This document shows positions 1 to 5,950 of a stretch of 5,950 bases of DNA, in pieces; position 1 is the first letter of the stretch; each line of letters starts with the position of its first letter. Both the position numbers and the translations under genes were made by a program. Source of the stretch: a virus; IMG/VR virus record IMGVR_UViG_3300020030_000013, positions 1 to 5,950 of that record; one strand, given 5' to 3'. Under the pieces are notes generated by a model. It was not told the origin of the DNA, did no database searches, and saw only the letters and a program-made list of their open reading frames with translations.

Positions 1-43
1 AGGCCTTGATTGCGTACCCTGACTTTTCGGTCGATTTTTTCGA
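1..43. repeat. Terminal redundancy, an exact copy of 5908..5950, marking a closed circular genome of 5907 nt
   Basis: The string aggccttgattgcgtaccctgacttttcggtcgattttttcga at 1..43 is identical to 5908..5950, base by base. This is the typical overlap signature of a circular contig. Confidence 0.97.
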
Positions 44-122
44 CAATACGCTCGTTTTAATGTTTAGTACTGATCTGACTCGCGATGAAAGCACGTCGAA
101 AGAAGAAGGGAAGGGGAACTAA
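1..122 (+). CDS. 3' part of a junction-spanning hypothetical protein (107 aa once the circle is closed; the 5' part is 5706..5907)
   Basis: The reading frame entering from 5706 continues through the repeat. Codons GCC TTG ATT start at base 3 and the frame runs to TAA at 120..122. The C-terminal sequence is ...EALIAYPDFSVDFFDNTLVLMFSTDLTRDESTSKEEGKGN. By my count 48 of 107 codons end in T, like the core genes. I recognise no homology. Confidence 0.6.
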   Translation, partial: ALIAYPDFSVDFFDNTLVLMFSTDLTRDESTSKEEGKGN

Positions 123-168
123 AGTAGTGACCCGCCCGCTTGGTGGTAGAGTTCTTTAACTCGTTAGT

Positions 169-202
169 CCTGCGGGAGAAAAATCTCTCGCAGGCTTTTT
201 TT
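169..202 (+). terminator. Rho-independent terminator
   Basis: An 11-bp stem pairs cctgcgggaga (169..179) with tctctcgcagg (184..194). There is one G.U pair at 175/188 and the loop is aaaa (180..183). The stem is followed by c and then seven T (196..202). It sits 46 nt after the stop codon at 120..122. Confidence 0.85.
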
Positions 203-228
203 CAAGCGTAGATTAATGCTTTTAAGTT

Positions 229-429
229 ATGGATAATTTTGATTTTAAGCCTAGATTTTCTCCTATTATTAATGGTGTTCCTCATCGTTATTCTATTGGC
301 GCATATCGCGGCAAAAAGCGAGTCCCTATCGCTTGGTTTGTCGACGAAGGTTCTGCAAACGACTATCTTGCTCGCTGTCGTCGGACTAACCCTTATATCA
401 AGTTTGATTGTCTTAGAAGTCTTTTTTAA
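229..429 (+). CDS. Small basic hypothetical protein (66 aa), translationally coupled to the replication initiator
   Basis: ATG start. By my count 41 of 66 codons end in T, a strong frame signal. There are 12 K/R versus 6 D/E. The stop TAA (427..429) overlaps the Rep ATG (429..431) as TAATG. I recognise no family. Confidence 0.7.
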   Translation: MDNFDFKPRFSPIINGVPHRYSIGAYRGKKRVPIAWFVDEGSANDYLARCRRTNPYIKFDCLRSLF

Positions 430-1499
430 TGCCCTGCTCTTCCCCTATATGGATACGGAATCGTCGTTATTTCGACAAGAAGAATCCCTGTCGTAACGGT
501 TCCGACGTCGCCAAGTCCGCTTTGGCTCTTCGCCCCTGGGATATTGCTCGCCAGTGGCTAATGGTTCCCTGCGGAAAGTGTGAAGACTGCTTGCGTCGTC
601 AGCGTAACGATTGGTTTATCCGACTTGAGCGCGAGCTTGCTCGTTGTAAAGCCGATTCTCAGCAGGCTATCTTCATTACGATAACTATTGCTCCTGAGTA
701 TTATCAGGAAGCTCTTCTTGACCCGGCCCGTTTTATTCGACGATGGAACGAGCGTGTTCGCCACAATCTTGGTCACTCTTTTAAACATGCGTTTTTCCAA
801 GAGTTTGGCACCCACCCCGAAGTTGGTTCTGAGCCGCGCCTACATTTCCATGGTTTTCTTTTTGGGACTAATGTTTTATACAACGAAATCCGAAAGGCTG
901 TTGGAGACCTTGGTTTTGTTTGGCTCGGGAAGGGCACGCACAAGCGGGCTCGATATGTTGTTAAATATGTTACTAAACAAATCCAGTTTAACCCCGAGGA
1001 TGTTTCGGGTAAATTCGTTACTATAAATGGAAAAGCTACACCTCTATCTACTCTCCTCCAACATCGCCGTTATACGCGAAAATTCGTATCTGCTGGCGTT
1101 GGTGATTTTCTTGGCTATATGCCTCGTCCTTCTGCTCGTATTACGTCGTGGTCTTATTTCGACTTTAAGAAGGGTATCAATTATAATTACTCGATTCCTC
1201 GATATTATCTTAGGTATCTTAAACCGGAAGACGACGTTGTTCGCTCGATTACCGCTGCTGACGCTTATTCACGTTTTAGCAAGTCTTCTCTGGTTAAGCG
1301 TATTGTGTCTCTGTGTGTTGAGCGGTTCAATCTCAACTCCGCCGTATCCGGTAGAGCGTCGTACACGTGGGAGCAAAAGCAAATGATGCGCTTCTCTTCC
1401 TCCTCTCAAAAAATGCCTAATTTCGATCCTCCTACTTGGCTTGATTTCGATATCCTTCATTTTTGGGAGGATCACTATAAACTTCAACTAATTATTTAA
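429..1499 (+). CDS. Replication initiation protein (Microviridae VP4 / gene A-like HUH rolling-circle endonuclease)
   Basis: RCR motif 1 is FITITI (aa 82-87). The HUH motif is LHFHGFLF, with H139-F-H141 at nt 843..851. The catalytic tyrosine motif is ARYVVKYVTK, with Y176 at nt 954..956 and Y180. The N-terminal MPCSSPIWIRN plus PCGKCEDCLRRQRNDW (cysteines at nt 570..590) is typical of non-phiX microvirus Reps. Confidence 0.94.
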   Translation: MPCSSPIWIRNRRYFDKKNPCRNGSDVAKSALALRPWDIARQWLMVPCGKCEDCLRRQRNDWFIRLERELARCKADSQQAIFITITIAPEYYQEALLDPARFIRRWNERVRHNLGHSFKHAFFQEFGTHPEVGSEPRLHFHGFLFGTNVLYNEIRKAVGDLGFVWLGKGTHKRARYVVKYVTKQIQFNPEDVSGKFVTINGKATPLSTLLQHRRYTRKFVSAGVGDFLGYMPRPSARITSWSYFDFKKGINYNYSIPRYYLRYLKPEDDVVRSITAADAYSRFSKSSLVKRIVSLCVERFNLNSAVSGRASYTWEQKQMMRFSSSSQKMPNFDPPTWLDFDILHFWEDHYKLQLII

Positions 1500-1502
1500 T
1501 TT

Positions 1503-3302
1503 ATGGGAAAACAACCTTTTATCTCACACGCCGTAAATGGCTACTCTCGCTATGATGTTCCTGAGAGTAAAGCCTTTACATGCACACCGGGTATTCTCTA
1601 TCCGGTGCGAATCGATTTTATTAATGCTCGGGACCGCGTATCCATTGAGCAGGGAATTGACGTTCGGAGCAATCCGCTTGCCGTTCCGACGTTTAACCCC
1701 TATACTGTTCGGCTTCATCGCTTCTGGGTGCCCCTTCAGCTGTATCACCCCGAGCTTCGGACGAATAGTAGTAAGTTTGATATGAACGATTTGAGTCTTA
1801 ATTGGATTGCCTCTTGTCAGCCTCAAGCGGGTAGTCTGAATGCTGATTTTTTCGGTGCGGCTTATACTAATTCGTTGATGGCTTGGTTGCGTATCGCTAA
1901 TAAATACACTACTGGTGTATCCAGCGTTCCTTCTTCCGTGTCTCTCCCCGCTAATTCTTCTATGGATCGTTGGAGTAATGCGGATTCGTATTTAGCCTAT
2001 TGGGATATCGTCCGCAACTACTATAGCTATTCGCAGTGGGGACTTTACTCTTTCGCTTGGCCCATGGCTAACAAAGTTCGTTATTCTGGTTCTTCTTATG
2101 CTCTCGATCCCGATAATTCTGGAGACTCTCGCTTTTTTACACAGTGTTTTGGAAATCTTGAGTTCCTTGATGCTTACTTTGAGAGTCAGTTTTATCCGTC
2201 GGCCTTGACTTCTACGAATAATACTTTTAATCGCGGTAATTTGTTTACGCAGATAATTCGTTCTGACCTGGATAATGCTGCTGCTTCCGGTAATGGTTTC
2301 CCCGTTTCTACGACCCTCCCGTCTTCCTCGCTTTGGGGTTCAACCGGTATTATTTCTCAGATTTTGCCTACTGCTTCTTCTGCGGGCAATTCTGCTGTTT
2401 CCTATTTTGTTACAGCGCATCCTATGGCTGTATGTCCTTCGAATCCCGATCGTTTTAGTCGTCTTATTCCCACTGGCGCTAATTCTGCTGTATCTATGAC
2501 GGGCGTGTCTACTATTCCTCAGTTGGCCATTGCTTCTCGTCTCCAGGAATACAAGGACTTGCTTGGTGCTGGAGGTAGCCGTTATAGTGATTGGCTGGAA
2601 ACGTTTTTTGCCTCCAAGATTGAGCACGTTGATCGTCCAAAACTCCTTTTCAGTGCCTCGCAGACTGTTAATGTGCAGATTATTATGAATCAAGCCGGGG
2701 ATAATAATTTTTCTGGTAATCAACCCCTTGGGCAACAAGGCGGTTCTATTGCTTTCAATGATCGTTTAGGTCGTCGTCAGTCTTATTACTTTCGTGAGCC
2801 TGGTTATATAATTGATATGTTGAGTATTCGCCCTGTTTATTACTGGTCTTTTATCAAGCCGGACTATCTCAACTACATGGGTCCTGACTACTTTAACCCT
2901 ATTTATAACGATATTGGATATCAAGACGTTCCTGCCTTTCGTCTTGCTTTTAACGGCAATCCTGGGGCTTCATTTGCTACCGAACCTTGTTTTAATGAGT
3001 TTCGTTCTTCTTATGATGAGGTGTTAGGTCAGCTCCAGGCTTATAATATGCCGGAGGCCGAAGGTGGATCCGGAATTCCTCTCTACTCTTATTGGGTTCA
3101 GCAGCGCACTGTTTATACTCATAGTGGAACCGGTTCCCTTCCTGAGGCTAGTTATTATCCCCTTCTTTTCGTTGATTTGGCTCAGGTTAATTCTCCTTTT
3201 AAGTCAAATGTTGAGGATAATTTCTTTGTGAATATGTCTTATGCCGTCCAGAAGAAGAGCCTCGTTAATAAAACTTTTGCGACTCGTTTGTCTAACCGTT
3301 AA
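1503..3302 (+). CDS. Major capsid protein (Microviridae VP1 / F-like jelly-roll capsid protein)
   Basis: The ORF is 599 aa. Conserved microvirus capsid blocks are present: TPGILYPVRIDFINARDRVSI, LHRFWVPLQLYHP, AYWDIVRNYY, ASRLQEYKDLLGAGGSRYSDWLETFF, DRPKLLFSAS and YQDVPAFR. It is the largest ORF and has a strong T3 codon bias. Confidence 0.95.
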   Translation: MGKQPFISHAVNGYSRYDVPESKAFTCTPGILYPVRIDFINARDRVSIEQGIDVRSNPLAVPTFNPYTVRLHRFWVPLQLYHPELRTNSSKFDMNDLSLNWIASCQPQAGSLNADFFGAAYTNSLMAWLRIANKYTTGVSSVPSSVSLPANSSMDRWSNADSYLAYWDIVRNYYSYSQWGLYSFAWPMANKVRYSGSSYALDPDNSGDSRFFTQCFGNLEFLDAYFESQFYPSALTSTNNTFNRGNLFTQIIRSDLDNAAASGNGFPVSTTLPSSSLWGSTGIISQILPTASSAGNSAVSYFVTAHPMAVCPSNPDRFSRLIPTGANSAVSMTGVSTIPQLAIASRLQEYKDLLGAGGSRYSDWLETFFASKIEHVDRPKLLFSASQTVNVQIIMNQAGDNNFSGNQPLGQQGGSIAFNDRLGRRQSYYFREPGYIIDMLSIRPVYYWSFIKPDYLNYMGPDYFNPIYNDIGYQDVPAFRLAFNGNPGASFATEPCFNEFRSSYDEVLGQLQAYNMPEAEGGSGIPLYSYWVQQRTVYTHSGTGSLPEASYYPLLFVDLAQVNSPFKSNVEDNFFVNMSYAVQKKSLVNKTFATRLSNR

Positions 3303-3314
3303 TACATTGATTTT

Positions 3315-3611
3315 ATGGCACTTGATTGGTTACTTGAAGATGTTCCCGCTTACGTTTCTCGCGGTCAGCGTATCCTTTCCGTTCTTGACGGTTCTGGTTC
3401 TGTCGACGTCCTTCCCGGTCGTCCAGATGTAACAGCTGAACCCTCTGACTTTGAGAAAGGAGAGAAGTATAATCCTGATATTGACTTTGACCCTAATTCC
3501 TTCTCTCGTATGGATAAGTTTGACGGTCTCGAAGTAGGTCAAGAACTTATTGATTCAATGATAGATAGGAGTAAGTCTGACTCGAAGTCTACTAATCCTG
3601 AAGAAAAATAG
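3315..3611 (+). CDS. Acidic hypothetical protein (98 aa); candidate internal scaffolding protein
   Basis: ATG start 12 nt after the capsid stop. By my count 48 of 98 codons end in T. There are 22 D/E versus 11 K/R. The scaffold function is only inferred, from size, charge and position beside the capsid gene. Confidence 0.6.
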   Translation: MALDWLLEDVPAYVSRGQRILSVLDGSGSVDVLPGRPDVTAEPSDFEKGEKYNPDIDFDPNSFSRMDKFDGLEVGQELIDSMIDRSKSDSKSTNPEEK

Positions 3612-3633
3612 GATATCCTTTACTTGACGATAT

Positions 3634-3936
3634 ATGCTACGTGCGCGGACCCCTCTTGCAAGAGTTCGTGAATTGCTAGAGGTTATTGGTAACGACTGCA
3701 GGAGAGGCCGCGCATTTTTCTATCGTTCTTTAAATTCTACTATCATGTCTGATACCAAACAACCGTTTTATAAGTCGAAGGCGTTTTGGACGCTTGTTTC
3801 TTCTATTGTCGCTGCTTTAGCTGCCTTTTTTCTTGCCTCGTGTTCGGCTCAAGCTAGAATGCAGCGTAGCGGCGTTCACATCGACACTGTCCGTGTTGAT
3901 TATATTATTCGTTCTAACAATTTAACCCATATATAG
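3634..3936 (+). CDS. Small membrane protein, probably a lipoprotein precursor; the maximal ORF is 100 aa and the more plausible product is 63 aa from the internal ATG at 3745
   Basis: From M38 (nt 3745) the sequence is MSDTKQPFYKSK-AFWTLVSSIVAALAAFFLAS-C. This gives a Lys-rich n-region, a 20-aa hydrophobic core and a lipobox L-A-S-C. The mature peptide would be 31 aa (CSAQARMQRSGVHIDTVRVDYIIRSNNLTHI). By my count 32 of 63 codons in 3745..3936 end in T. The stop TAG (3934..3936) is 1 nt before the next gene. The upstream 37 codons overlap the stem-loop at 3642..3719, so the true start is uncertain. Confidence 0.65.
   Translation: MLRARTPLARVRELLEVIGNDCRRGRAFFYRSLNSTIMSDTKQPFYKSKAFWTLVSSIVAALAAFFLASCSAQARMQRSGVHIDTVRVDYIIRSNNLTHI
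3642..3719 (+). other. Extended imperfect stem-loop followed by a T5 run (candidate terminator and/or ssDNA structural element)
   Basis: Pairings are 3642..3648 tgcgcgg with 3708..3714 ccgcgca (7 bp), 3652..3656 cctct with 3703..3707 agagg (5 bp), and 3657..3660 tgca with 3697..3700 tgca (4 bp). A further 5 bp form between 3664..3669 and 3692..3696, with one bulged base. The apical loop is about 3670..3691, and ttttt follows at 3715..3719. A competing local 12-nt perfect palindrome, ctcttgcaagag, lies at 3653..3664. Confidence 0.6.
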
Positions 3937-3937
3937 T

Positions 3938-5305
3938 ATGCCTATTCCCATTGCCTCCGCCGCATCCTTCGGTCAAGCCCTTGGTCAGTCCGCTGCCTCT
4001 ACGGGTACTACAGGCTTGATTTCTGGCGCCCTTGGTCAGCTTTTCGGAGGCATGAATGCCCGTCGCCAGTGGCGTTTTCAACAAAAGCAAATGAAGCTTC
4101 AACAGCAGTATGCTTTAGAGCAAATGCAGAAACAGTCGGAGCTTTCTTACGCTAATTGGCAGAAACAATTTGATTATGAAAACGCTTATAATGACCCTTC
4201 AAAACTTTTTGCTCGCTATTTGAAGGCTGGTGTTACCCCTGCCGCCGTTTTAGGTTCTTCAGGCGTTGGCGTCAACGCTACGATGTCAGGAGGTTCTGCT
4301 GCTATGCCTTCCGCTGCTGGTCCTTCTGGTGGTTCCCCAGTTAGTCCCGGTGCTTCACCTATTGCCGACCCCGCTGCTATTGCGCAGAATATGGTTGCCC
4401 AGTCTACGGTTGATCGCAATACTGCTGCCGCTGCTCGTGATGAAGCGGAGGCTCGTTCTATTGATGACCAGAATGTCGGCAATCAGCTTTATGTTGCTAT
4501 GGCTCAGGCTCGTGTAGCTCTTGATGAGGCAGTAACAAAACATAATTTAGCTGCCCATGATGTTCTTCGAGTTCAAGAGGATATAGAAAAGAACAATCGA
4601 TTTATTTCTGATTCTACCCTTTTGAGTGTCATTGATGAAAAGAAGAATCAGGCTGCCCTTGTCGCTGCGGAAGTTCGCCGCTTGAATATCGAGAATGAAA
4701 ATATAGGTGCTGTCATGTCGGCTCAAGCCTTCATGATGAATACTCAGGCTGCTCTCAATCAAGTTCTTGGCCAGCAGGCTCGTGAAGTTATAGAGTCTTT
4801 ACGTTTAAATAATCTTGACACTGCTAATGAGCTCGCGCGTAATTGGGACAAGCGTTTCGATATCGAAATTCCGAATCCTCAGTATTCAGGAAATCTTAGA
4901 AGCAAAAATCCTATTACCCGTGGAAATCCCGGTCCTAAGACTTTCAAGATTTCAATGTCGCTTAAAGATTTTCACGATAAAACCATTATAAACGAAGCAA
5001 ATGCATCTGATTTCCTTCCCGAGCAGGCCCGCATTGCTCTTCGTAACGCGAAGGTTGACCCGTATGTTGAAATTTCTAAAGCTTTAGTCGGTGCGGCTGC
5101 TAGCATCGCTGGCGCAGGTATAATTCGCGGAGGCATGTCTCGTGCCTCTAAGACTATCTCTGCTGGCGGTTCTACCAGCGATTCCGCCGGCTCTTCGCTT
5201 ACGACTCGTTATGACTCGAGAGGAAATCTTGTTGGTTATGCGAAGACAGAGATGACTCGTGGTACTCACTCGAGTTCGTACAATACTACTCGAAGCTCTC
5301 GTTAG
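3938..5305 (+). CDS. Minor capsid / DNA pilot protein (Microviridae VP2 / H-like)
   Basis: The ORF is 455 aa. It has a Gly/Ala-rich hydrophobic N-terminus (PIPIASAASFGQALGQSAASTGTTGLISGALGQLFGG), then a Q-rich segment. The motif YENAYNDPSKLFARYLKAGVTPAAVLG (nt 4175..4255) is typical of VP2 proteins. An A/G/S/P linker is followed by a long heptad-like Ala/Gln/Glu region and a C-terminal glycine-zipper-like segment, ALVGAAASIAGAGIIRGG. Confidence 0.82.
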   Translation: MPIPIASAASFGQALGQSAASTGTTGLISGALGQLFGGMNARRQWRFQQKQMKLQQQYALEQMQKQSELSYANWQKQFDYENAYNDPSKLFARYLKAGVTPAAVLGSSGVGVNATMSGGSAAMPSAAGPSGGSPVSPGASPIADPAAIAQNMVAQSTVDRNTAAAARDEAEARSIDDQNVGNQLYVAMAQARVALDEAVTKHNLAAHDVLRVQEDIEKNNRFISDSTLLSVIDEKKNQAALVAAEVRRLNIENENIGAVMSAQAFMMNTQAALNQVLGQQAREVIESLRLNNLDTANELARNWDKRFDIEIPNPQYSGNLRSKNPITRGNPGPKTFKISMSLKDFHDKTIINEANASDFLPEQARIALRNAKVDPYVEISKALVGAAASIAGAGIIRGGMSRASKTISAGGSTSDSAGSSLTTRYDSRGNLVGYAKTEMTRGTHSSSYNTTRSSR

Positions 5306-5319
5306 AATTGTTGATTTTT

Positions 5320-5350
5320 TTTGCATTTTAGATTTTTGTTGTTATATTTG
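5320..5350 (+). promoter_or_regulatory. Candidate Bacteroidota-type promoter (-33 TTTG / -7 TAnnTTTG)
   Basis: TTTG lies at 5320..5323, followed by a 19-nt spacer and TAtaTTTG at 5343..5350. It sits in the 71-nt gap after the VP2 stop. In my scan this is the only one of four TAnnTTTG occurrences on the + strand that is both intergenic and has a correctly spaced upstream TTTG. Confidence 0.5.
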
Positions 5351-5376
5351 TGGCACAAACCAATAACCGTATTGCT

Positions 5377-5682
5377 ATGGAGAACACCAAAAGATTTAAA
5401 GTCGACAAGTTGATGATCGACGTTGTAGAGTACGCATTTGTTGAGTGGCTTGTTCGTCGAGGGATATTTACTGCCTTTAGGGCGAACTATGACCACATCC
5501 CTACGGCTCGAAAGACCTTTCGAGACTACTTGCGTGGCCACATTCGATATGTTTATCGTACGCCTAGCCTCGGCCCTGAGTCCCTCATCTCCTCTGCTTT
5601 TCTGTTTGATTCAACTCCCGAGGGTTACGAATTCTGGCTTAGGCACTCCGACGCTTGGAGGCGTTTTTACGGTAAGCTCTAA
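5377..5682 (+). CDS. Hypothetical protein (101 aa from the ATG; the ORF track extends it to a GTG at 5350) with a C-terminal F-x-F-D-S-T-P-E-G-Y-x-F-W motif
   Basis: The open frame runs 5350..5682. The GTG at 5350 is the last base of the predicted -7 promoter box, so ATG 5377 is the likely start. Codon usage differs from the core genes: 34 of 101 codons end in T and 32 in C, Arg is AGR 4 / CGA 4 / CGT 4, and Asp is GAC 5 / GAT 1. I cannot name a family. Confidence 0.6.
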   Translation: MENTKRFKVDKLMIDVVEYAFVEWLVRRGIFTAFRANYDHIPTARKTFRDYLRGHIRYVYRTPSLGPESLISSAFLFDSTPEGYEFWLRHSDAWRRFYGKL

Positions 5683-5705
5683 ATGAAACATTAAATTATA
5701 TTACT

Positions 5706-5950
5706 ATGACACAAGTTCATGTTGTTATTCGCCGCATTAATCCGGCCCTCAATGTCGATTTTGTTCAGGTAGGCTATATTAAAGAGGGACAATTTTCGAC
5801 ACTTCAGCTCAGTACCCTCGATTGCACTCCTATTCCTGATTATGTAGAGCTTTCCAGTATCTCTGCTACGCCTCATATTAATCATAGCCTTATTCCCAGT
5901 CTCATAGAGGCCTTGATTGCGTACCCTGACTTTTCGGTCGATTTTTTCGA
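5706..5950 (+). CDS. 5' part of the junction-spanning hypothetical protein (107 aa; it continues into 44..122 of the circle)
   Basis: ATG at 5706 is the first start after an in-frame TAA at 5673..5675. There is no stop before the window end. The translation is MTQVHVVIRRINPALNVDFVQVGYIKEGQFSTLQLSTLDCTPIPDYVELSSISATPHINHSLIPSLIEALIAYPDFSVDFF... It is absent from the ORF track only because the window is cut inside it. Confidence 0.6.
   Translation, partial: MTQVHVVIRRINPALNVDFVQVGYIKEGQFSTLQLSTLDCTPIPDYVELSSISATPHINHSLIPSLIEALIAYPDFSVDFF
5908..5950. repeat. Terminal redundancy, an exact copy of 1..43
   Basis: Identical 43-nt string; see the feature at 1..43. Confidence 0.97.

Follow-up and report, generated by a model that had tools for sequence, protein, structure and literature searches.

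Directly downstream of the gene for the pilot protein VP2 in the viral record IMGVR_UViG_3300020030_000013 lies a small open reading frame (ORF), here named ORFx. The stretch of DNA that was analysed (positions 1 to 5,950 of this record, called the window) is a complete microvirus genome. Because its ends carry a 43-nucleotide (nt) direct repeat (window 5908-5950 equals 1-43), the circle measures 5907 nt, and all genes of the window are located on the + strand (Table 1). The stop codon of VP2 ends at 5305 and the ATG of ORFx is found at 5377, leaving a gap of 71 nt that contains a predicted Bacteroidota-type promoter. In an original prediction, ORFx had been described as a recently acquired, moron-like accessory gene that is expressed from its own promoter and whose foreign origin can be read from its codons. 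We find that ORFx is a lineage-specific small phage gene in an ordinary transcription unit and that it carries an orphan domain. New here are a formal test of the codon skew and the finding of this skew throughout the family, the pattern of presence and absence in the wider clade, a natural deletion of the gene, a promoter that would predate ORFx and a large domain superfamily that reaches into jumbo phages.

ORFx is a conserved protein-coding gene

The ORF of about 101 amino acids (aa) that had been noticed directly after the promoter is a genuine gene. A word-indexed search returned at least 232 clusters of ORFx homologues with 67-90% identity, almost all of exactly 101 aa and encoded on contigs of about 6 kb. 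An alignment of 32 sequences contains 34 invariant residues, and the length and the reading frame are kept across more than 100 genomes. When compared to 22 close relatives, the ratio of non-synonymous to synonymous substitution (dN/dS) of ORFx was 0.24, roughly twice that of the other genes (0.09-0.15). An alternative GTG start at 5350 falls within the -7 box of the promoter, and the ATG is kept in relatives. These comparisons clearly indicate that ORFx is protein-coding and under purifying selection.

A conserved predicted promoter and a predicted terminator enclose ORFx and its downstream genes

The promoter recognised by the primary sigma factor of the Bacteroidota reportedly consists of TTTG at -33 and TAnnTTTG at -7. 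Both boxes are present at 5320-5350, within the usual spacing of about 19-21 nt, for a phage whose host is itself a prediction. The reading of this gap as TTTG, a 19-nt spacer and TAtaTTTG was correct in its coordinates, and the site is the sole match to TTTG-N17-21-TAnnTTTG on both strands of the window (chance expectation 0.13 matches; 23 of 200 shuffled sequences contained at least one). In relatives, the TAnnTTTG box is found at -34 (+/-1) from the ORFx ATG in 89 out of 100 genomes and the full two-box motif in 59 out of 100, and across 91 complete genomes the full motif recurs nowhere else. Upstream of orf66, the other large intergenic region, TAnnTTTG was found in 5 of 98 genomes and is not conserved.

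The -7 box is directly followed by the leader motif AAACCAATAAC, which would represent the first bases of the transcript, with a predicted start at about 5355-5358. Exact 10-mers of this leader are common to 76-82 of 90 genomes, and few other non-coding stretches are so conserved. The promoter, together with a GTAAAC-type leader, was also found in genomes lacking ORFx, where it is located ahead of an orf107-type gene, and in the ORFx-less loci L225 and L227 a TAnnTTTG box precedes the gene that follows VP2. Therefore, the promoter belongs to the unit rather than to ORFx, and the assumption that the gene has brought its own promoter does not hold.

The second gene of this unit, orf107, starts 23 nt past the ORFx stop codon. 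It encodes an acidic protein of 107 aa (isoelectric point (pI) 4.5) with an acidic tail, and a homologue is present in 98 of 107 loci. A very basic ORF of 24 codons overlaps its 3' end and stops 10 nt short of a predicted intrinsic terminator; this ORF is kept in 82 of 89 complete genomes. This short ORF (85-159), which is missed by ordinary ORF callers, is a candidate for a J/VP8-type (J-like) DNA-binding packaging peptide. The terminator is the best terminator-like site in the window, and single-stranded DNA (ssDNA) folding reaches z-scores of -3.1 to -3.7 over 81-280. Directly after ORFx no terminator was found; only a weak 6-bp hairpin is present in the 3' end of the ORF (5646-5660). The transcription unit would thus likely consist of the promoter at 5320-5350, ORFx, orf107, the 24-codon J-like gene and the terminator at 169-202.

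In addition, the ACCAATAACC part of the leader (5358-5367) has an exact inverted copy, GGTTATTGGT, at 3681-3690, which forms part of a conserved hairpin element located between orf98 and the gene of the lipoprotein type. In a comparison of about 90 genomes, few non-coding stretches were as conserved as the leader motif and its inverted copy, and the element around 3681 is exact in up to 90 out of 90. For base-pairing between ACCAATAACC and GGTTATTGGT no covariation was observed, as both are invariant and three single variants are uncompensated. An apparent compensatory pair in bajarodmic virus 678 was discarded, since it was built on 8-mers expected by chance. A common protein-binding site and a long-range pairing are both possible.

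The codon skew of ORFx is a trait of the whole family

As had been claimed, the codon usage of ORFx departs from that of every other gene in the genome. The fraction of codons ending in T (T3) is 0.337 and of those ending in C (C3) 0.317, compared to a T3 of 0.449-0.621 in the remaining genes of the window. Arginine is encoded by CGT (4), CGA (4), AGG (3) and AGA (1), while VP1 contains no AGR codon, and aspartate by GAC (5) and GAT (1). For a formal test, synonymous codons were redrawn for the ORFx amino-acid sequence from the pooled usage of Rep, VP1 and VP2 in 5000 simulations. The simulated T3 was 0.484 +/- 0.045 and that of ORFx is 3.3 standard deviations lower (p = 0.0006); the simulated C3 was 0.211 +/- 0.038, with ORFx 2.8 standard deviations higher (p = 0.005). 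A per-codon log-likelihood as low as that of ORFx was obtained in 0 of 5000 simulations. Moreover, none of the 101-codon sliding windows of Rep, VP1 and VP2 showed a T3 of 0.39 or lower or a C3 of 0.27 or higher. Since resampling and sliding windows never match the values of ORFx, its skew is not sampling noise and exceeds the sampling variance of the core genes (p about 0.001 or less). When the same resampling was applied to other small genes, neither orf66 nor orf98 stood out, and orf100 alone fitted the core usage more poorly (log-likelihood p = 0.0096), with an ordinary T3 and C3.

The skew is not confined to the window. In 51 of 53 relatives, the T3 of ORFx is lower than that of the core genes of its own genome. 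Over 88 complete genomes the mean T3 of ORFx is 0.39, compared to 0.44-0.55 for the other six genes, and ORFx is the gene with the lowest T3 in 51 of these 88 genomes (about 13 expected by chance). The copy in the window is found at the extreme end of this family distribution. Pooled codon tables revealed a general loss of T in favour of C at the third positions of ORFx, seen in the codons of Tyr, His, Asp, Asn, Ile, Val, Thr, Ser and Leu, and showed that ORFx is also richer in AAA, CAA, CGA and AGG (G to A for Lys and Gln). Overall its codon usage is flatter, without a recognisable optimal set. Synonymous sites differ at 40-65% between close relatives, which is near saturation, and protein identity within the family has fallen to about 33%. 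As a donor signature could not survive such synonymous and protein divergence, the skew must be maintained in place. T-poor and C-rich third positions are thus a standing trait of the ORFx family and no relic of a transfer, and the codon usage loses its value as a mark of foreign origin.

Three possible causes of the skew were considered. An overlapping gene was ruled out by the lack of a conserved open frame in about 100 relatives: the +1 and antisense frames are open over at least 80 codons in only 33% and 26% of them, respectively, and the minimum open stretch is 27 codons in the +1 frame and 22 in the antisense frame. For a structure of the ssDNA or RNA that protects third-position C, only one 120-nt window of ORFx with a z-score of -2.8 was found, a value matched in many places, and the first 100 nt of the gene are unstructured (folding z-score of 0 or higher). 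Translational optimisation appears less likely, because the flattening from T to C, including more CGA and AGG, does not resemble a selection for preferred codons.

ORFx is fixed in a sub-clade and absent from deeper lineages

Relatives were fetched in three ways, namely through ORFx, through Rep and through VP1, of which the latter two are independent of ORFx. In all 53 IMG/VR genomes found through ORFx, this gene comes next after VP2, and in nearly all of them 63-86 nt separate the two. An ORFx-family ORF directly follows VP2 in 71 of 72 complete genomes found through Rep, and ORFx is present in 21 of 22 further loci of more than 5 kb found through VP1. ORFx is a core and syntenic gene only in the sub-clade in which Rep is roughly 70% or more identical. 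These results speak against a recent horizontal acquisition, and in its immediate clade ORFx has to be regarded as a core gene rather than as a moron.

One otherwise ordinary clade member, L099 (IMGVR_UViG_3300020030_000071), carries a clean natural deletion of ORFx at about 5239-5365. The -7 box and the AAACCAATAACC leader are retained in this genome ahead of orf107, which starts 122 nt after VP2. In another relative (L107), ORFx contains a premature stop codon.

We also examined a wider clade of GenBank microviruses from faeces of pig, rodent, lemur, tortoise and marmot, the VP1 of which is 38-67% identical to that of the window. An ORFx-family gene was found in MG945813, bajarodmic virus 678 and Dipodfec virus 660. 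No match to the ORFx profile was obtained in Tortoise microvirus 7, MG945683, bajarodmic viruses 416, 279 and 17 and Microvirus mar42, nor in the IMG/VR locus L236; the loci without a match include L222, L225-L229 and L236. An orf107-type gene follows straight after VP2 at least in Tortoise microvirus 7 and, by eye, in MG945683. In the Rep tree, the ORFx-positive genomes form a short-branched inner group with scattered losses, and the deep, long-branched genomes are without ORFx. At least three changes in the presence of ORFx are required on this unrooted tree, which would fit one old gain followed by two or more losses. ORFx is therefore lineage-specific: it is old, fixed in the sub-clade and at least occasionally dispensable. 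Of the term accessory gene, one part can be kept, as ORFx is absent from distant clade members, deleted in L099 and endowed with a domain of double-stranded DNA (dsDNA) phages; the other part fails on its fixation in the immediate clade.

Measured against the window, ORFx has a median identity of 54%, VP2 of 50%, orf107 of 43% and Rep of 85%. The identity of ORFx co-varies with that of VP2 (rho 0.62) and of orf107 (rho 0.49). It ranges from 32 to 82% while that of Rep stays at about 85% throughout (rho = -0.25). Evolution of ORFx is fast and modular, and takes place in a variable VP2-ORFx-orf107-orf66 arc of a mosaic genome. The co-variation of ORFx (pI 9.7) with orf107 (pI 4.5) is compatible both with a physical pair and with simple linkage. 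A cellular donor or a prophage form of ORFx was also sought, and no relative of Rep or ORFx was found among 185,579 prokaryote species genomes. The Bacteroides fragilis microvirus phiHBP1, with 6319 nt and an M15 peptidase, belongs to a different lineage and has no bearing on the function of ORFx (PMC13064476).

ORFx is a single copy of a domain widespread in phages

With a pI of 9.7 (family median 9.6), the ORFx protein is basic, and it contains many aromatic residues. Its highest Kyte-Doolittle hydropathy over 19 residues is 0.94 and no hydrophobic segment is present; the product is predicted to be of a cytoplasmic type, with neither signal peptide nor membrane segment. AlphaFold, based on the alignment of 32 sequences, predicted an all-helical protein of five helices (mean predicted local distance difference test (pLDDT) 81, predicted template modelling score (pTM) 0.73). 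Foldseek returned no fold match for ORFx in the PDB (best E value 9.4), and in BFVD a microvirus homologue was the only match apart from a siphovirus ORFan of 81 aa that matched weakly. No match was obtained with Pfam, with NCBIfam or in a sequence-profile search of the PDB, and a single PADLOC match (E value 0.004) was judged meaningless. In records that carry the gene, it is annotated as a hypothetical protein.

Weak matches of ORFx were obtained to PHROGs 10949 and 16354 (E value 0.002-0.009), covering 22 residues. A profile of the microvirus family, searched against 1.84 billion representative proteins (E value of 0.001 or lower), yielded 495 clusters, the best non-microviral E values being down to 1e-12. 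The suspicion that the C-terminal motif of ORFx is a recurrent module of phage proteins was borne out by these matches. Many of the non-microvirus members stand alone, with a length of 77-115 aa and an alignment to about positions 20-100 of the profile; others are proteins of 150-960 aa with 2-7 tandem copies and without any other Pfam domain. The members share an N-terminal helix with the pattern F-x2-F/W-L-x6-Y/F-x2-F-x2-N and a C-terminal module AF-x-W/F-x2-TPEG-x2-F/Y-W-x6-W. ORFx represents one copy of this 'AF-x-W/F-x2-TPEG-x2-FW' domain of about 80 residues.

When a DNA pattern for the C-terminal motif was used, 109 IMG/VR stretches were found on contigs of 6-401 kb, often more than one per contig. 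The microvirus-family profile recognised 78 of 82 motif-bearing ORFs, 19 of these over at least 60 positions. In a small set of non-microviral motif-bearing ORFs, it aligned over positions of about 12-103 with E values of 1e-10 to 3e-14. The reverse profile A3 in turn matched microvirus members (E value 1e-12 to 1e-20). Full-length domain matches are located in viral contigs of 83-401 kb. Furthermore, the C-terminal module was found fused to DUF3310 (PF11753) or QueC (PF06508), above the Pfam thresholds, and in one case, below the Pfam threshold, to the N-terminal domain of a dATP/dGTP diphosphohydrolase. In the few dsDNA-phage neighbourhoods that were annotated, the domain lies next to further paralogues of itself, to ATPases and to proteins of the Erf-like (annealing) and Gam-like types, as well as to an HNH endonuclease and a polynucleotide kinase. 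In the source records of 10 superfamily members, no name is given. As judged by these profile matches, ORFx is a full-domain member of the undescribed TPEG-FW domain superfamily, which overlaps PHROGs 16354 and 10949.

The C-terminal TPEG module links ORFx to PHROGs 16354, 10949, 25460, 20568 and 30073 and to the DUF3310 and QueC fusions, and the N-terminal F-x2-F/W-L helix is likewise common to ORFx and many PHROG and TPEG members. Unlike most TPEG proteins, the microvirus family has F where the others have W; the PHROG families are without assigned function.

In dsDNA phages, as in six viral contigs of 48-317 kb (L122, L126, L114, L162, L180 and L178), the TPEG domain is frequently encoded by small paralogous genes that lie side by side, or is repeated in 3-7 tandem copies in one protein of up to 964 aa with no other recognisable domain.

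Comparison with known systems

In phiX174, the promoter P_D is followed by the small non-capsid genes D and (E), the tiny basic J and the terminator T_J. The ORFx unit has the same layout of a promoter, small non-capsid genes, a tiny J-type gene and a terminator, and in both cases a circular ssDNA phage carries all of these genes on its one coding strand, with dosage set by position. On the other hand, ORFx resembles D, E or C neither in sequence nor in fold, the promoter of its unit is of the Bacteroidota type while that of phiX174 is of the sigma-70 type, and the J-like gene overlaps orf107. ORFx is also absent in related lineages, whereas gene D is, to our knowledge, universal in the Bullavirinae. 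Protein C of phiX174 acts in the switch to ssDNA synthesis and packaging. Like protein C and gokushovirus VP5, ORFx is small, looks non-structural and is encoded between the pilot and Rep genes. Unlike these two, it has no homology to them detectable with Pfam or PHROG, does not co-evolve with Rep and has a domain that is also found in dsDNA phages.

With lambdoid morons ORFx shares that it is an extra non-core gene of atypical composition, situated between core genes behind a promoter, and that it is dispensable in at least one relative. In contrast to them, its promoter and terminator belong to a larger pre-existing unit, it is fixed and syntenic in its clade, and its compositional skew is maintained by the family. 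The hallmarks of a moron, namely a promoter and a terminator of its own and patchiness among close relatives, were thus not found for ORFx, and patchiness appears only at a greater phylogenetic distance.

Proposed role of ORFx and alternative explanations

We propose that an old insertion placed ORFx between orf107 and a promoter that was already present, and that ORFx would occupy the promoter-proximal slot of highest dosage without signals of its own. As first cistron it would be produced as soon as infection begins, with the highest dosage. Its domain may have been exchanged with dsDNA phages, where it lies in neighbourhoods of replication and recombination genes. The protein would act inside the cell, in host takeover, counter-defence or nucleic-acid binding, and would be no part of the virion or its assembly. 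The roles named in the original prediction, namely anti-defence, host takeover and exclusion, are all conceivable. A non-structural role of this kind is suggested because ORFx does not co-vary with Rep, is lost where the unit is kept, diverges fast and has a domain that occurs in dsDNA phages. Taken as a whole, the explanation of ORFx as the first cistron of a conserved unit, an old insertion and a non-structural factor has in our view about an even chance of being right. We are largely confident of the architecture of the unit and of the evolutionary status of the gene, while a factor directed at the host or at DNA metabolism is a tentative assignment that falls somewhat short of even. More speculative still, and rather doubtful at present, is the view that the domain, with its about 80 residues, is a mobile effector module that has crossed from one viral realm to another: it occurs in ssDNA microviruses and in dsDNA phages, including jumbo phages, where it is multiplied into tandem arrays and clusters of paralogous genes. 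Such a module would act on a conserved bacterial target, for example in counter-defence or host takeover, would have been captured in the slot of highest dosage, and might owe its divergence to an arms race with the Bacteroidota.

Several observations weigh against this explanation. The Rep tree is unrooted and has long branches, so that repeated loss may be as plausible as a gain, and the domain may have been transferred in either direction. The J-like peptide in the unit and the pairing of an acidic orf107 with a basic ORFx make a morphogenetic role or an ORFx-orf107 complex possible, and an important housekeeping role would agree equally well with the near-universal retention and with a dN/dS well below 1. 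Promoter activity, transcription start and terminator are predictions from consensus and conservation, and the gene context in dsDNA phages is known from about five annotated neighbourhoods. Neither an overlapping gene nor ssDNA folding accounts for the maintenance of the skew. Finally, with no relative of Rep or ORFx in the prokaryote species genomes searched, the host is a prediction too.

The main rival to a non-structural factor is that ORFx serves as an accessory of microvirus morphogenesis or replication, either in the manner of VP5 or protein C or as a scaffold or chaperone partner of orf107. Its place in a unit with a J-like packaging peptide, arranged as P_D-D-E-J-T_J of phiX174, its basic character next to the acidic orf107 and its almost universal retention in the clade are in line with this idea. 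However, the correlation with Rep (rho = -0.25) argues against tight co-evolution, ORFx is absent from lineages that keep orf107-type genes and deleted in L099, and its domain is found in dsDNA phages that have neither a microvirus-type assembly nor an ssDNA stage, so that we regard such an accessory role as unlikely. Less probable again is a small DNA-binding autoregulator that recognises ACCAATAACC at the transcript start and its inverted copy at 3681-3690. Both copies of the motif belong to the top-conserved non-coding sequences in about 90 genomes, the inverted one lies in a conserved hairpin, and the protein is basic with conserved arginines (R27/R28, R49 and R53). Yet the motif stays invariant while ORFx falls to about 33% identity, and it is kept in L099 from which ORFx is deleted. 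This points to another conserved partner of the motif, for instance Rep, the ribosome or the RNA polymerase of the host. Moreover, the predicted fold matches neither a helix-turn-helix nor any other DNA-binding structure, and the two copies of the motif do not covary.

A recently acquired moron-like gene with its own promoter and a foreign origin visible in its codons is largely refuted and in our opinion very improbable. In its favour, the codon skew in the window is real, the domain is common to unrelated phages and ORFx is dispensable in at least one close relative. It is nevertheless difficult to reconcile with the synteny in 71 of 72 complete relatives, with a skew that spans a family diverged to 33% identity with synonymous sites near saturation, with the promoter in ORFx-less genomes and with the failure to find a cellular or prophage donor among 185,579 species genomes. 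That ORFx is not translated at all and is conserved as a DNA or RNA element has nothing in its favour besides the unusual third-position composition, and we give it practically no chance: the dN/dS of 0.24 goes together with a fixed length and frame in more than 100 genomes, the helical model is confident, homologues of the protein domain occur in unrelated phages and no exceptional ssDNA structure is present.

The case of ORFx corrects the view that a deviant codon usage has to mean a recent foreign gene: where an ssDNA phage evolves fast, a skewed composition can be a lasting property of one particular gene. A likely transcription layout is also provided for a large group of uncultured mammalian-gut microviruses, in which ORFx, orf107 and a J-like gene lie between one conserved Bacteroidota-type promoter and a single strong terminator. 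Of more use as a lead is a domain superfamily that is widespread in very different phages and has no entry in Pfam, NCBIfam or the PDB. A 6-kb genome that gives 5% of its length, and probably its best-expressed position, to this domain would offer a compact system for studying the domain's function.

Genome organisation and further conserved elements

The lineage of the window is a gut microvirus lineage that very probably infects Bacteroidota. The coordinates of its genes and signals are given in Table 1.

Table 1. Genes and predicted signals of the window
Feature	Position	Strand	Remarks
24-codon very basic ORF (MKARRKKKGRGTKVVTRPLGGRVL)	85-159	+	overlaps the 3' end of orf107 in another frame
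Predicted intrinsic terminator	169-202	+	11-bp stem with 7 G-C pairs, followed by a T7 run
orf66	229-429	+	not recognised by PHROG or Pfam profiles
Rep	429-1499	+	recognised by PHROG and Pfam profiles
VP1	1503-3302	+	recognised by PHROG and Pfam profiles
orf98	3315-3611	+	not recognised by PHROG or Pfam profiles
Small lipoprotein-type gene	inside 3634-3936	+	not recognised by PHROG or Pfam profiles
VP2 pilot protein	3938-5305	+	recognised by PHROG and Pfam profiles
Bacteroidota-type promoter (predicted)	5320-5350	+	-33 box TTTG at 5320-5323, 19-nt spacer, -7 box TATATTTG at 5343-5350
Leader motif AAACCAATAAC	5357-5367	+	directly after the -7 box; unique in the window, nearly invariant in the clade
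ORFx	5377-5682	+	101-aa product; no Pfam match
orf107, first part	5706-5950	+	circular ORF that spans the window junction (43-nt terminal repeat)
orf107, remainder	44-122	+	TAA at 120-122

Within Rep, 72-88 of 90 genomes share a stretch of about 100 nt (window 1054-1158) at the nucleotide level, a conservation far above that of the flanking coding sequence. The ssDNA folding at 961-1160, also in Rep, is more stable than that of shuffled sequences (z-scores of -2.6 to -3.3). The origin of phiX174 lies inside gene A, and by analogy the conserved stretch in Rep could be a candidate for the nick site of Rep.

The region between the cassette and orf66 (123-228) is present in at least three unrelated versions among close relatives: a CCTGCGGGAGA hairpin terminator, a GC-rich GGAGGCCGAAGACGCG...GGCCGGCG element and a CGCGCTCGAAAGTACCG...CGAAGCGC element. 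These unrelated versions point to a swapping of modules at this point of the genome.

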